From Candidatus Levybacteria bacterium RIFCSPHIGHO2_01_FULL_37_33 (GTDB lineage Bacteria; Patescibacteriota; Microgenomatia; Levybacterales; UBA12049), in NCBI GenBank assembly GCA_001782085.1, contig MFNM01000014.1:1-53883 (forward strand): DNA of 53,883 bases, written 5' to 3'. Below, one piece after another: positions 3,922 to 18,494 of the stretch (position 1 is its first letter; every line of letters begins with the position of its first letter). Position numbers and translations under genes: made by a program. The notes beneath the pieces were generated by a model. The model did not search any database. It was not told the origin of the DNA and was given only the letters and a program-made list of their open reading frames with translations.

Positions 3922-5016
3922 CTAAAATTTCCCTGTAGTAATAAGAATATCATATTCTGCCGATTGGCTCGCCTCTTGTAATGTTGGGTCTGGAAAACCG
4001 TTTTTAATCGCTTCTGTGATGCTATCTAGCATGTCTTTTGAGAGTAGTTTGTTATACACAATTGTAGTCCTTTGCTCCAAATTGTCTGTGTTTCCTATGC
4101 TAACATTATTGTATCCAGCTTCCTCTAGAAGATCACTTAATTTCCCTGCCTGTCCTTCGATACCTGATCCATTAAGAATTTTAATTTTTATGGTCGATTT
4201 GTCCATCAAAGGTTCTGCTGTAGGGCTGGGCTGAGAAGTTGTAGAGGGAGTTGCTACTGATGTTGGTTTTGGACTTAGAGATTCTGATTTTTTAAACCAG
4301 GGATTTGGAATAGTTTTGGACCACAATAGGAAATATCCAATTGCACATGCCAGAAGTATTACGCTTATTGCAAGAAGTACATACTGTTTGCGCATACTCT
4401 TCTTTCCTACTTCTTCTACTTCAAGATTCTCTCTTGTATCAGCCACCCCCTTATCAGCTTGAGGGTTGTCTTTAGTCTGAAGGAAATTATATCTTTGCAG
4501 TATTCTTTTCTCTCCTGTAGTCTTTTTGGCTTCCTGCACAGTAAATTCCTGGTTGTTTGTCCTATTAGGAAAAACAGAAACCGGAACGACAGAAAAAATC
4601 TCAATGTTATTCATTTTAAGCGCTTCCACAATTCCTTCGTAAAGTTTTCTATTCGCCGCAATTATCCGGAGTTTATTTTTGTTGCGGAGCGTTATTGTAG
4701 CAATGCTGCTTCTTAAGAGAGGAACTGAAGTTAAAAATTTCTCTGCCTCATCCTTTTCATTTTTACCCGTGATATCAATATCGTTTGCATAAACAAGCTC
4801 GGCAGATAAAACGATAATACCCTTACCTCTTTTTAACGGTAATCCTTCAATAAACTTTTGAAGCTCTTCTGAATATTTTTTTTCGTCAACTATTTCTGAG
4901 TGCTGGATGGATGCAGGAGAAAAAGAAAGTTTCTGTTGGTTATTGCTGTTTGTTTCAAATACTTCTAAAAAATTGCTACCAACATACCATACAAGGGGTC
5001 TCCCAAACAAAATCAT
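3922..5016 (-). CDS. bitopic filament-locus protein: cytoplasmic N-domain, one TM segment, Pro/Ser/Thr linker, C-terminal LytR_C domain
   Basis: C-terminus IKILNGSGIEGQAGKLSDLLEEAGYNNVSIGNTD...TTIVY matches the LytR_C pattern. The N-domain is paralogous to 46575..47381 (for example EKFLTSVPLL/QKFINMIPFE and IFSVVPVSVF/VLGIIPSTVL). Starts 3 nt after the major pilin stop. Confidence 0.7.
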   Translation of the reverse strand: MILFGRPLVWYVGSNFLEVFETNSNNQQKLSFSPASIQHSEIVDEKKYSEELQKFIEGLPLKRGKGIIVLSAELVYANDIDITGKNEKDEAEKFLTSVPLLRSSIATITLRNKNKLRIIAANRKLYEGIVEALKMNNIEIFSVVPVSVFPNRTNNQEFTVQEAKKTTGEKRILQRYNFLQTKDNPQADKGVADTRENLEVEEVGKKSMRKQYVLLAISVILLACAIGYFLLWSKTIPNPWFKKSESLSPKPTSVATPSTTSQPSPTAEPLMDKSTIKIKILNGSGIEGQAGKLSDLLEEAGYNNVSIGNTDNLEQRTTIVYNKLLSKDMLDSITEAIKNGFPDPTLQEASQSAEYDILITTGKF

Positions 5017-5019
5017 ACC

Positions 5020-15571: not shown

Positions 15572-17233
15572 TTAACTGTTAAGCGTGACTTCACCTTTTT
15601 TTGCCTGTACCCCACTAATCGGCAGGGAAAAGTAAAATGATGTTCCCTCTCTTTCGGCAGGCAGGTCTTTTTCCTCTGTTGATTCTCCGCCCAAGACGTG
15701 CTCCAGAGGCGCATCAGCCTTAGGCTGAGATCCGCTTGAGGAGGAAAACCAGATTTTTCCTCCGGATGATTCAACAATTGCTTTTGCTAAATAGAGACCC
15801 AAGCCATTACCTTCCGTTTCAATTTTTATAATATTTTCCCCGCGGTAGAATTTCTGGAATATTTTATCACAATCCTTTTTTGGAATTCCATATCCGTTAT
15901 CGCTCACTTGAGAGATTAATTCATCACCTTTTTTAGAAATAAATACAGAAATTTCTCCACCGGGAGGCGTATACTTTGATGCGTTTGTTAGTAAATTAAC
16001 GTACACTTCCCGGATAAGTTGAGGATCAATATTTATCAGAGGAAGGTCTGAATGGACACTGACAATAATCTGCTGTTTTTTTGCATTACTTTTTACTTTT
16101 ATTTCGGTGATCACTTCCGAAATGAGCTTATTTATGTTCGTTGGTTTGGGATCAACAATTATTCTTCCTGATTCAATACGTGAAATATTAAGAAGAGAGT
16201 TAACCAGACTAATCATCCGTTCATTTGAATCAGAAACGTTTTTCGCGTATTCTTTTTGTTCCGGATTTAGCTCTCCCGCATCGCCATTGAGCAGCATCTC
16301 GCAAAACCATTTCACCGCAGATAGTGGTGTACGGAGCTGATGCGAAGCAAGCGAAATAAATTCTGTTTTCATTCTGTCAACCTCTTTTTCATGACTTATA
16401 TCTCTAAAAACTTGGACCGCTCCGATTATTTGATCTTTTAAAACAATTGGCGTAGCTGTAATCGCCACCGTGATTTTCCCAGATCCTTTCTGCAGATAAA
16501 TACTCTGGGAAAAAACTTTTTTACCGGTGGTTAAGGCTTTGTACATATCTCTGTCTTCCCGCGAAATAAGATATCCCTTCTCATCCATTGCCGGAACGGT
16601 TTCAAACCAGAACCGTCCCACTGCCTCAGAAGCTATCCAATTGGTCATTTGTTCCGCTGCGTGATTGAAAACCAAAATTTTTCCTTGGGGATCTGTTACC
16701 ACAACTCCCTCTCCGATGCTTGTTAAAGTGGCTTCATCTTTAGTCTTTTCAATTAATGTTTTTTCCTCTGCTTCTTTATTTTTTTGTTGTTCAGAATCCA
16801 GTTCTTCAATTCTTTGCATTAACGCTTTATTCTTTTCCGAAACCTTTTCTTCCAAATCCTCAAAATATGATGCTTTTAGTTTTTCTGTCCTCTCATCGAA
16901 ATATCCAGGTAGCTGTCCAAGATCATCTCTGGTTTGGATACCAACTTTATAATCCAGGTTGCCTTGCGCAATCGCTTTTGTTCCTTCATGCAGTCTGGCA
17001 ATTTGTCCAGAAGTACTGTTTGACAAAAGTAAAATTGCTGCCACTGCGTTCAGAACAAAAGTTACGATAAGACCAACCATAAAATATTCGATGGCCAAAT
17101 TAAATGACTGAAATGAGAGATAAAGAAATATGCTAAGAAGAGCAATTGTCAAAGCTGAAAATCCTGCAACTGCCAAAAGTTTATATTTGGTCTTCATGTA
17201 ATCAAGTATTTCACAAGGTAAAAATTCAGTCAA
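15572..17233 (-). CDS. membrane sensor histidine kinase (2 TM, HAMP, coiled coil, PAS, HisKA, HATPase_c)
   Basis: H-box SLASHQLRTPL, N-box LLTNASKYTP, G-boxes DNGYGIP and GNGLGLYLAK. An extra ~30-aa GC-rich insert lies before the last strand (TSFYFSLP). Confidence 0.85.
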   Translation of the reverse strand: MTEFLPCEILDYMKTKYKLLAVAGFSALTIALLSIFLYLSFQSFNLAIEYFMVGLIVTFVLNAVAAILLLSNSTSGQIARLHEGTKAIAQGNLDYKVGIQTRDDLGQLPGYFDERTEKLKASYFEDLEEKVSEKNKALMQRIEELDSEQQKNKEAEEKTLIEKTKDEATLTSIGEGVVVTDPQGKILVFNHAAEQMTNWIASEAVGRFWFETVPAMDEKGYLISREDRDMYKALTTGKKVFSQSIYLQKGSGKITVAITATPIVLKDQIIGAVQVFRDISHEKEVDRMKTEFISLASHQLRTPLSAVKWFCEMLLNGDAGELNPEQKEYAKNVSDSNERMISLVNSLLNISRIESGRIIVDPKPTNINKLISEVITEIKVKSNAKKQQIIVSVHSDLPLINIDPQLIREVYVNLLTNASKYTPPGGEISVFISKKGDELISQVSDNGYGIPKKDCDKIFQKFYRGENIIKIETEGNGLGLYLAKAIVESSGGKIWFSSSSGSQPKADAPLEHVLGGESTEEKDLPAEREGTSFYFSLPISGVQAKKGEVTLNS

Positions 17234-18494
17234 GCAAAGTTTCTATAACTTCCCACGGCTGCCTATAGTTTCCTTCATAGCCTAATGCCCAAATAGCAAT
17301 CCCTCCCATGTTTTTTTCTTTTGCGAATTTTATTTTTTCGGCAATTGATCTATCGTCTTCATAATAAATTTGCTTAATCGCTCCATACTGCATATAGGAT
17401 AGCCATGGAGATTTAGAAATATCGTCCCAAGATTTTATAATATCGCTTCTTTCTTTTAAAAGCTCTTTAACTCTTTTGTATGTTGCTAAAGCGCCGCTGC
17501 CTTCTACAATTGAACTTTTGTGTTTGTCGGTGAATGTCTGCCATTCGTAGCCGTAAAATGGAATTGCCAGAATTAATTTATCATTTGGCACGCGTCCTGA
17601 TAAAGCATCTATCGATTCCGAAATACTGTGTTCATTTGCTTCCCCATAAATAGGAGAGGGTGGTCCCGATACCGTTGAACTTTGCCCGCGATAGTCGTAT
17701 GCCATAAGAATTACCTGATCAACTGCCTTTGCAATTTCTGTCATATTGTATGCCTTATCTTTTACTACAACAGTTGCATTGACATCTATAGAAATAATAA
17801 TCTTTGGATTGTTTTTTTTTAATCTTAGAGATAGTTCCTCTAAGAACGTAGCAAGATATTTGGAGGTGGGAAAATTGGTATCTGTAAAGTATTCAAAATC
17901 GATATTTATTCCGTCAAGACTATATTCTTTTATTAATGCTAATAACTGCCCGGTTAATTTATTTGTCGCAGTTTGACTGCTTATAATATTATCTATTGTT
18001 GTATTGTCAAAAGATTTAATTGACAGTAAAACTTTTGTTCCGCTTCCTGAGGCTTCCTTTCTAATCTGCCCAAAATAATCAGAGTTAAAATAGCTCCATT
18101 CCAAAACAGGCAGGCTGTTTTCGTCGTATTTTATAATACTGCCGTCTTTGTTAACATTTAGTCCAAAATAGATGATCTGAGTAAGGTCTTTGGGATAAAC
18201 CTTTGCTTTTTTAGCAACGGACCAGGATGGCAAAAAACCAATAGCTTCTCTTTTAATTGTATTAGTTTGTTGAGTGATAGATTTTGTAATTGCCGGGCTA
18301 ATTATAGTTTTATTTCCATTTTCTAAGTTTGTAGATTTTTTATTTTGTGGTAAAACAAAATAAGTAAAGACAGCAAGTAAAACAATAAACATTCCAATCA
18401 GAATTTGCTTTTTCCATCTATTTTTATCAAAATCATCTGAAAAAGAGCTATTTAAAAGAGGTGCGGTTTTTTCTATATTTTCTTTGGTATCCAT
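17226..18494 (-). CDS. membrane-anchored glycoside hydrolase family 18 protein (YaaH/YdhD-like)
   Basis: N-terminal TM segment, catalytic-region motif LDGINIDFEYF, and C-terminal GGIAIWALGYE. Overlaps the kinase gene by 8 nt. Confidence 0.75.
   Translation of the reverse strand: MDTKENIEKTAPLLNSSFSDDFDKNRWKKQILIGMFIVLLAVFTYFVLPQNKKSTNLENGNKTIISPAITKSITQQTNTIKREAIGFLPSWSVAKKAKVYPKDLTQIIYFGLNVNKDGSIIKYDENSLPVLEWSYFNSDYFGQIRKEASGSGTKVLLSIKSFDNTTIDNIISSQTATNKLTGQLLALIKEYSLDGINIDFEYFTDTNFPTSKYLATFLEELSLRLKKNNPKIIISIDVNATVVVKDKAYNMTEIAKAVDQVILMAYDYRGQSSTVSGPPSPIYGEANEHSISESIDALSGRVPNDKLILAIPFYGYEWQTFTDKHKSSIVEGSGALATYKRVKELLKERSDIIKSWDDISKSPWLSYMQYGAIKQIYYEDDRSIAEKIKFAKEKNMGGIAIWALGYEGNYRQPWEVIETLLD

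Follow-up and report, generated by a model that had tools for sequence, protein, structure and literature searches.

A two-component system with receiver-only regulators precedes a type IV pilus cluster in Candidatus Levybacteria and probably gates pilus assembly

Introduction

We analyzed a 53,883-nt stretch of contig MFNM01000014.1 (the window), which is Rifle-aquifer DNA of Candidatus Levybacteria and is also matched by DNA on ANAN16 scaffolds and in JGI 3300002105. Within the window, 15 minus-strand open reading frames (ORFs) follow one another from position 18494 down to 3922, with a plus-strand gene on either side, and the ORF map thereby bears out an earlier note on this DNA. The run contains a type IV pilus cluster, here called locus A, and genes for a membrane sensor histidine kinase (HK) and three receiver-only response regulators (RR3, RR2 and RR1) that directly precede the pilus ATPase gene pilB. 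Overall, the domain content and the conserved gene order make it probable that this dedicated two-component system gates pilus assembly, with its output-less receivers acting on the machine formed by PilB, PilC and a PilM-like protein. The earlier note had proposed a compact phosphorelay gating the filament; the tie of kinase and receivers to the filament genes withstood our analysis, but the single 15-gene module in which the note had placed them did not.

The genomes of Patescibacteria, also called the candidate phyla radiation (CPR), are very small and encode few regulators, and host attachment, motility and DNA uptake in these bacteria are thought to depend centrally on type IV pili. A dedicated switch beside the pilus motor would name the main regulatory input to this lifestyle, and two receivers of ~125 aa together with one kinase would offer small, concrete targets for biochemistry or genetics in culturable relatives. 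Our full-text literature searches turned up no paper that links a two-component system to type IV pili in CPR bacteria or Saccharibacteria, an absence that is not proof.

Results

Conservation of the kinase-receiver-pilB order

For a forward test, a PilB scan of GTDB species representatives yielded 80 loci, onto which the window proteins were mapped (compared loci are cited below by number, such as L008). A locus was assessable when at least 3 kb of sequence lay upstream of pilB, and a receiver was counted when it lay no more than 3 kb upstream. Receiver-only genes were found upstream of pilB in 13 of the 14 assessable loci of locus A's PilB clade and in 1 of the 53 other loci (Fisher p = 7.6e-12, a value that overstates independence, since the compared loci are phylogenetically related). 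The clade includes Levybacteria-like bacteria, Terry-, Lipton-, Harrison- and Paceibacteria and Saccharimonadales, and in the positive loci the receiver-only genes (121-152 aa) number one to five, frequently with a PAS kinase gene in front. This pattern is seen, for example, in the Terrybacteria locus L008, which reads HK-RR-RR-RR-pilin-PilB, and in L024, L084, L069, L009, L013, L016, L021, L022 and L023; in two Saccharimonadales loci (L007 and L020) the receiver gene is divergent from pilB. Major-pilin homologues lie between RR and pilB in Parcubacteria-type loci.

The reverse test started from five RR2 homologues (64-76% identity) that were picked for long contigs, blind to PilB. All five sat directly before pilB in the order kinase-RR(-RR)-pilB-pilC-pilins. 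Across the PAS-DHp-CA core (DHp, dimerization and histidine phosphotransfer; CA, catalytic), the window kinase was 46-53% identical to the kinases of L092-L095, a divergence similar to that of PilB (51-56%). The sensor parts of the kinases, on the other hand, vary from cassette to cassette and comprise HAMP-PAS, HAMP only, MASE3, CHASE3, multi-PAS and soluble PAS forms. Variable sensors on a constant core fit a system with one predicted output and many inputs. The earlier note had called for a search for the adjacency GH18-kinase-three receivers-pilB in related genomes: its kinase-receiver-pilB part proved to be widespread, whereas the GH18 glycoside hydrolase gene was confined to close relatives and the third receiver to one lineage.

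Genes beside the kinases of related cassettes hint at possible inputs. They include a weak TfoX_N match (L093, 4768-5013), a dCache_1-HAMP protein with a phosphonate-binding protein (L094, 68-2344) and a GAF protein (L092, 5444-6394).

The sensor kinase

The HisKA (65 bits) and HATPase_c (87 bits) domains of the kinase retain all catalytic motifs, namely the H-box SHQLRTPL, with its His, and the N, G1, F and G2 boxes, which places the protein among classical two-component kinases. Of the description in the earlier note, in which the only kinase was a HAMP-PAS membrane histidine kinase, the PAS-HisKA-HATPase_c part was recovered, and HAMP was weak in Pfam. The note had also invoked host sensing. 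However, the kinase lacks an external sensor, because its two transmembrane (TM) segments are only ~10 residues apart, and direct extracellular sensing is unlikely. The absence of Che genes that the note had reported was confirmed, as no genes for CheA, CheW, a methyl-accepting chemotaxis protein (MCP) or PilT and no further two-component genes are present in the window. At the C-terminal end of the kinase (window 15572-15800), ~30 Ser/Glu-rich residues, SSSSGSQPKADAPLEHVLGGESTEEKDLPAEREG, are inserted before the last strand of the HATPase_c domain.

The receiver-only response regulators

The three receivers lack an output domain, as had been claimed before, and the Pfam search that the note proposed returned Response_reg and nothing else. 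All of them keep ED/DD, the acceptor Asp (D59/D52/D53), Ser, the switch Tyr and Lys (in RR3: ED, D59, S89, Y and K111), and their sequences thus qualify them as putative functional receivers. A search of 5.8 billion proteins gave 1446 homologues of RR2 at E<=1e-10, the top 120 of which were all 117-159 aa long, and the nearest solved structure was RR468 of Thermotoga maritima (3dge, E 3e-22). In NCBIfam, the receiver sequences were closest to OmpR-family receivers. Ser, Thr or Ala, and never Pro, comes next after the conserved receiver Lys in 116 of 120 RR2 homologues, as it does in all aligned pilus-linked CPR receivers; CheY, PilH and Spo0F have Lys-Pro.

A neighbour-joining tree, in which CheY, PilH and Spo0F sequences served for rooting only, split a kinase-proximal group with the acceptor motif WLD (RR-a, containing RR3) from a pilB-proximal group (RR-b, containing RR2). 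RR3 clustered with the kinase-adjacent receivers of L012, L092, L093, L094, L008, L084 and L069, and the gene order of RR-a and RR-b is identical in Microgenomates- and Parcubacteria-type loci. RR1 was placed loosely in the tree and is 42% identical to RR2. It is missing in L012, the closest species representative (PilB 86% identical), whose pilB has an N-terminal extension instead. The comparison indicates that RR-a and RR-b are ancient and conserved and that RR1 is a recent extra copy.

The pilus machinery and the paralogous locus B

By its predicted products, locus A is a complete-looking, monoderm-type type IV pilus cluster that encodes PilB, PilC, a PilM/GspL-like anchor, a major pilin and another four subunits that are minor pilins or pilin-like (Table 1). 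PilB has the motifs of an assembly ATPase (Walker A GPTGCGKT, Walker B, a His box and CxxC...CxxC), and PilC has the two T2SSF stretches of a platform protein. The class III prepilin signal N_methyl was recognized in the 172-, 590-, 182- and 194-aa proteins. From its sequence, the 590-aa pilin-fused protein is a candidate tip or adhesin subunit; it has a paralogue in locus B (B_629) and is 64-67% identical to its counterparts in L012 and L002. The major-pilin promoter, TTGACA-18-CATACT at 5594-5623, is kept in the window, L002 and L012, which are three otherwise divergent alleles. With this promoter, the likely start of the major pilin shifts to ATG 5583. No Peptidase_A24-type gene for the prepilin peptidase PilD was found among the scanned window ORFs; it may lie elsewhere, so the type IV pilus assignment is not excluded. 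Nor does the 54-kb window contain a gene like that for PilT, the type IVa retraction ATPase.

Table 1. Annotated features of the gene run in locus A and the signals attached to them (positions in the window; all on the minus strand)
Feature	Position	Strand	Basis
GH18 glycoside hydrolase, membrane-anchored, 422 aa	17226..18494	-	Pfam Glyco_hydro_18 E 6.7e-48, 164 bits; N-terminal TM
Promoter-like TTGACT-17-AATACT	17205..17233	-	7 nt 5' of kinase ATG 17197 (motif match)
Sensor histidine kinase, 541 aa from probable ATG 17197	15572..17197	-	Pfam weak HAMP, PAS, HisKA, HATPase_c; ORF reaches TTG 17233
RR3, kinase-proximal group RR-a, 134 aa	15138..15542	-	Pfam Response_reg alone; acceptor motif IWLD
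RR2, pilB-proximal group RR-b, 121 aa	14767..15132	-	Pfam Response_reg alone; motif LLDLxMPxKDGF...SNLGQ
RR1, third paralogue, lineage-specific, 122 aa	14294..14662	-	Pfam Response_reg alone
PilB-type assembly ATPase, 559 aa	12558..14237	-	Pfam T2SSE E 2.4e-124 and MshEN; NCBIfam GspE/PilB ~505 bits, below equivalog cut-offs
PilC platform protein	11476..12561	-	Two T2SSF stretches, E 6.6e-54; 4-nt overlap with pilB
Minor pilin, 172 aa, G|FTLIE	10945..11463	-	Pfam N_methyl; locus B paralogue
Large pilin-fused protein, 590 aa, G|FSVIE	9176..10948	-	N_methyl below Pfam cut-off; faint Kelch match
Secreted beta-propeller with degenerate M23, 553 aa	7449..9110	-	Pfam Vgb_lyase E 1.2e-110
Minor pilin, 182 aa, G|FTFIE	6901..7449	-	Pfam N_methyl; paralogue B_179
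Pilin-like protein without Glu5, 144 aa	6470..6904	-	Hydrophobic N-terminal segment; no Pfam match; position kept in L002 and L012
Y1 (HUH) transposase-like unit, gene 5680-6357	5640..6430	-	Pfam Y1_Tnp; NCBIfam REP-associated tyrosine transposase 44 bits vs 80 cut-off
Probable major pilin, 194 aa, G|FTLIE	5020..5604	-	N_methyl E 4e-7; likely start ATG 5583
PilM/GspL-like cytoplasmic domain, TM and LytR_C ectodomain, 364 aa	3922..5016	-	LytR_C Pfam E 5e-13

The last gene of the run encodes a membrane protein with a LytR_C ectodomain. An AlphaFold (AF2) model based on 22 homologues gave its N-terminal domain a predicted local distance difference test score (pLDDT) of ~90, and Foldseek matched this domain to PilM (5eoy, 5eou and 2ych) and GspL/EpsL (4pht and 1w97) at E 3e-7 to 8e-6, which identifies it as a PilM/GspL-type anchor. 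The likeness is at fold level only, as the family profile of the LytR_C protein showed no significant match to the PilM-PilN fusion of L024. LytR_C-bearing membrane proteins also occur in the pilus loci of other CPR bacteria (L092, L024, L013 and L016). The model indicates that the LytR_C protein is a component of the pilus assembly platform and part of the core machinery, rather than the wall-binding end of the run, because it has the PilM/GspL fold, a paralogue in locus B and recurrent counterparts in CPR pilus loci.

Locus B, the paralogous pilus locus in the window, had been described as lacking all of the genes that surround the pilus genes in locus A. This is right for the kinase and the receivers but not for the LytR_C protein, whose N-terminal domain has a paralogue at 46575-47399. 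Only 441 nt of sequence upstream of the locus B pilB fall within the window, and we rejected the explanation that locus B merely appears free of a two-component system on account of this truncation: in L087, whose sequence continues past the window end (53883), neither a kinase nor a receiver lies upstream of the locus B pilB, and no regulator was found in L087 1-9749. That upstream region contains a PIN-domain gene, two small genes without a Pfam match, a methyltransferase gene and an NgoPII-type restriction-modification system with a Vsr endonuclease.

Gene spacing and transcription units

Several details of the gene spacing agreed with the earlier description: ATGA overlaps of 4 nt each occur at 12558-12561, 10945-10948 and 6901-6904, the TAATG junction is a 1-nt junction at 7449, and RR3 and RR2 are 5 nt apart. 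The proposed GH18/kinase overlap at 17226-17233 would need an unlikely TTG start (17233); with ATG 17197, the start in public gene calls, the two genes are 28 nt apart. The run had been characterized throughout by overlaps or tiny gaps. The overlaps are real, but the gaps are not uniformly tiny (29, 5, 104, 56, 12, 65, 112, 75 and 3 nt, of which 104 nt separate RR2 from RR1 and 56 nt RR1 from pilB). Co-directionality alone is weak evidence, because 39 of the 47 window genes are on the minus strand.

All promoter calls given here are motif matches only. A sigma-70 promoter scan of the window found 56 sites compared with 45.5 expected, i.e. no overall enrichment, and the analysis of extended -10 motifs alone was informative: TGNTANN[AT]T is enriched 0-40 nt 5' of starts in the window (12 observed, 2.1 expected). 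Inside the run, such boxes precede GH18 (TGCTACTAT, 35 nt upstream), RR1 (TGGTAAAAT at 14672-14680, 9 nt upstream), pilB (TGATACAAT at 14244-14252, 6 nt 5' of the ATG) and the Y1 gene (7 nt upstream), and they likewise precede independent genes elsewhere in the window. In total, the run contains at least six promoter-like sites, located before the kinase, RR3, RR1, pilB, the Y1 gene and the major pilin. A terminator scan of the window gave 17 sites compared with 12.4 expected, and no terminator-like site fell in any intergenic gap of the run, including those between the kinase, the RR genes and pilB. We found no structured RNA in the 104-nt RR2-RR1 gap (RNA fold z = -1.0) and no riboswitch or leader in the run; an Rfam gathering scan of the window returned just four tRNAs. 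Because promoter-like boxes precede these six genes, the run probably consists of several transcription units with possible read-through and not of one proven 15-gene operon.

Extended -10 boxes stand 6-14 nt before many starts (for example at 14244-14252, 14672-14680, 6365-6373, 29880-29888 and 31648-31656), and no obvious Shine-Dalgarno sequence was seen at these starts. This pattern suggests that leaderless or very short-leader mRNAs are frequent in the source organism.

Wall-associated neighbours

The GH18 protein has the active-site stretch DGINIDFE, in which the middle Asp of DxxDxDxE is replaced by Asn and D-x-E is kept; it belongs to GH18, and its nearest solved structures are chitinases. 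Its gene adjoins the kinase in the close relatives L006, L012 and L091 only and is absent from every other kinase-RR-pilB cassette. A polysaccharide deacetylase gene (18906-19841, plus strand) is divergent from GH18. This pairing is loose in L006, where two genes are inserted, and is not kept in L012; the deacetylase and GH18 possibly form a glycan-remodelling pair that is independent of the pilus.

The M23 domain of the 553-aa secreted propeller protein scored 27.4 bits against a Pfam cut-off of 28.7. It has LFGLD in place of HxGxD (the first zinc-ligand His is Leu) with PHVH kept, and the protein does not qualify as an M23/LytM peptidase. The propeller-M23 gene is absent in the strain variant L002 and present in two copies in L012. 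Internal repeats of the propeller are spaced ~130 nt apart, with self-matches of 65-70% identity, and the streptogramin B lyase (Vgb) family models matched it at E ~1e-91, well below their cut-offs.

We regard GH18, the propeller-M23 protein and the Y1 transposase-like gene as passengers that are specific to a lineage or a strain. The earlier note had seen the filament genes bracketed by wall-active or wall-binding proteins, a picture that dissolves when GH18 is limited to close relatives, the M23 protein is degenerate and strain-variable, and the LytR_C protein is a pilus part. We therefore consider it very improbable that all 15 genes are co-transcribed as one module whose phosphorelay controls the pilus together with wall attack or binding. 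The single strand, the gaps free of terminator-like sites, the GH18-kinase adjacency in three close relatives and the divergent deacetylase beside GH18 would fit such a module. However, GH18 is missing from all more distant cassettes, L002 lacks the propeller-M23 and Y1 genes, and the degenerate M23 site, the PilM/GspL-like nature of the LytR_C protein and the promoter-like sites inside the run all argue against it.

The same neighbours raise the question of whether the kinase and receivers form a WalK-like system for envelope or wall homeostasis, acting with GH18 and the deacetylase and lying beside the pilus genes without regulating them. The best NCBIfam match of the kinase is indeed WalK, followed by PnpS and PhoR, though at 237 bits against a cut-off of 725, and both glycan genes are adjacent. 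Nevertheless, no WalR-type DNA-binding regulator is present, and the kinase-RR pair tracks pilB and not GH18 in Levybacteria-like, Parcubacteria-type and Saccharimonadales-labelled loci, so that we give this explanation very little credence.

The Y1 insert and mosaic alleles

The Y1 unit, whose IS200-like gene is one of the 15 genes of the run and was unmentioned in the earlier finding, is inserted after the last minor pilin and ahead of the major-pilin promoter. The gene encodes the HUH motif as HFH and a catalytic Tyr in RYIHLNP, and it is flanked by the hairpin motif AAC[G/A]CCGGGGGTT at 6414-6426 and 5644-5656 (2 matches compared with 0.08 expected). It is absent in L002 and occupies the same site in L012 at 92% amino acid identity. 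A second Y1 paralogue lies in the window at 19924-20766 (minus strand), and in L027, from a distant Patescibacterium, a Y1 gene likewise directly follows the pilin gene. The unit may be an element related to repetitive extragenic palindromes (REP) and their associated tyrosine transposases (RAYT) that is tied to pilin loci.

Comparison of alleles (window 24237-4694 with L002 and 18561-7908 with L006) revealed mosaic identity. L002 is 99.4% identical to the window over 24237-11457, which includes pilB and most of pilC, and then 54-80% identical in the pilin cassette. In L006, identity is 57-95% through GH18 and the kinase into the 5' part of RR3, and 100% from ~15269 to the end of the locus. 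The pattern arose either by recombination involving a hypervariable pilin cassette or as a chimera of the metagenome assembly (MEGAHIT contigs). A chimera of locus A and locus B in L002 was rejected, since its pilins are 54-80% identical to those of locus A and only 25-37% to those of locus B; a chimeric assembly of two locus A alleles is possible.

Discussion

After combining the domain and conservation analyses, we provide a putative mechanism for pilus gating by the two-component system of locus A. The gene content, the domains, the intact catalytic residues and the conservation of the cassette are observed; that phosphate is transferred, which protein is targeted and in which direction regulation works is inferred. 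The PAS membrane kinase, with no real external domain, would sense a cytoplasmic or membrane-level cue and phosphorylate the free-standing receivers RR-a (RR3) and RR-b (RR2). The receivers would in turn bind PilB, PilC or the PilM-like protein and thereby switch assembly on or off, and one of them could serve as an antagonist or phosphate sink in the manner of PilG/PilH. Direct action on the pilus machine is suggested because the receivers lack an output domain and no DNA-binding regulator is encoded alongside.

Several observations weigh against this mechanism. The relatedness of the compared loci and the WalK match of the kinase were mentioned above. In addition, the clade member L015 has no receivers, and neither do other CPR PilB clades, namely the Moranbacteria type, which has a tandem second PilB/PilT-like ATPase gene, and the Saccharibacteria loci L018, L019 and L026. 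The paralogous locus B works without a kinase or receivers. The predicted promoters right before RR1 and pilB mean that the RR genes and pilB need not share a transcript. Finally, an Hpt protein or a DNA-binding regulator could be encoded elsewhere in the genome.

The last point bears on what we regard as the principal, though unlikely, alternative, in which the receivers are phosphorelay intermediates or sinks with a transcriptional output, such as pilin expression via a distal DNA-binding regulator, and do not bind the motor directly. Single-domain receivers like Spo0F serve as relay intermediates, the OmpR-family likeness of the receivers is in keeping with such a role, and regulation could target the strong conserved promoter of the major pilin, whose homologues stand between RR and pilB in Parcubacteria-type loci. 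However, no Hpt, Spo0B-like or DNA-binding regulator genes were found in the ~20 cassettes examined, and the receivers of Levybacteria-type loci adjoin pilB and not the pilin. Therefore, we favor gating by direct receiver action on the pilus machine.

A bolder form of this gating model, which we advance as speculation with rather low odds of being right, treats kinase-RRa-RRb-pilB as an ancient Patescibacteria-wide device that replaces Chp, cyclic di-GMP and perhaps PilT controls. Phosphorylated receivers would bind the complex of PilB and the PilM-like protein antagonistically and toggle the motor between extension and arrest or retraction, and sensor swaps would change the cue. If true, swaps among HAMP-PAS, MASE3, CHASE3 and multi-PAS sensors would couple pilus dynamics, and through them host attachment or DNA uptake, to lineage-specific cues.

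Comparison with known systems

The system of locus A shares parts with several known systems. It is not WalK/WalR: in addition to the low score of the kinase, the receivers have no winged-helix output domain. PilS-PilR, which is encoded beside pilA in Pseudomonas, Geobacter and Myxococcus, similarly places a classical membrane HK and a regulator inside a pil cluster. However, PilR is an NtrC-type sigma-54 activator with AAA+ and DNA-binding domains, whereas the receivers of locus A are only 121-134 aa long and do not belong to this type. PilG and PilH of the Pil-Chp system (P. aeruginosa; Xanthomonas, PMC7029496) resemble them more closely, as paired, non-identical CheY-like receivers that are encoded with pil genes and exert post-translational pilus control there. 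The Pil-Chp kinase, in contrast, is the CheA-type ChpA, working with the MCP PilJ and the CheW PilI, whereas that of locus A is a classical HisKA PAS kinase; locus A falls outside Pil-Chp, as no CheA, CheW or MCP domains occur in the window or in related cassettes.

For the anchor, the closest layouts are those of GspL and PilM-PilN. The LytR_C protein likewise combines a PilM/GspL-fold cytoplasmic domain, one TM segment and an external domain, and in GspL this layout docks the GspE/PilB ATPase. It differs in that its actin-like domain is truncated (~150 aa) and its ectodomain is LytR_C instead of the ferredoxin-like domain of GspL/PilN. For the kinase-receiver pair, HK853-RR468 of T. maritima (3dge) is a similar combination of a HisKA kinase with a cognate receiver-only regulator, and RR468 is not known to be linked to pili.

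The nearest functional parallels are two receiver-only proteins of Xanthomonas. EmvR of Xanthomonas oryzae is phosphorylated via the classical kinase ColS, binds PilB and represses its ATPase (PMC11973254), and its mechanism is the one that we propose, by analogy, for locus A. DrdR of X. campestris, an output-less protein with tandem receivers, also binds PilB and stimulates both PilB and PilT (PMC13507683). Unlike the receivers of locus A, both are encoded by orphan genes away from pilB in proteobacterial diderms with PilT, and the CPR receivers are tied to pilB by genomic association. If our reading is correct, the system of locus A would extend direct receiver action on PilB from proteobacteria to a very distant, monoderm-like lineage that uses a classical rather than a CheA-type kinase.

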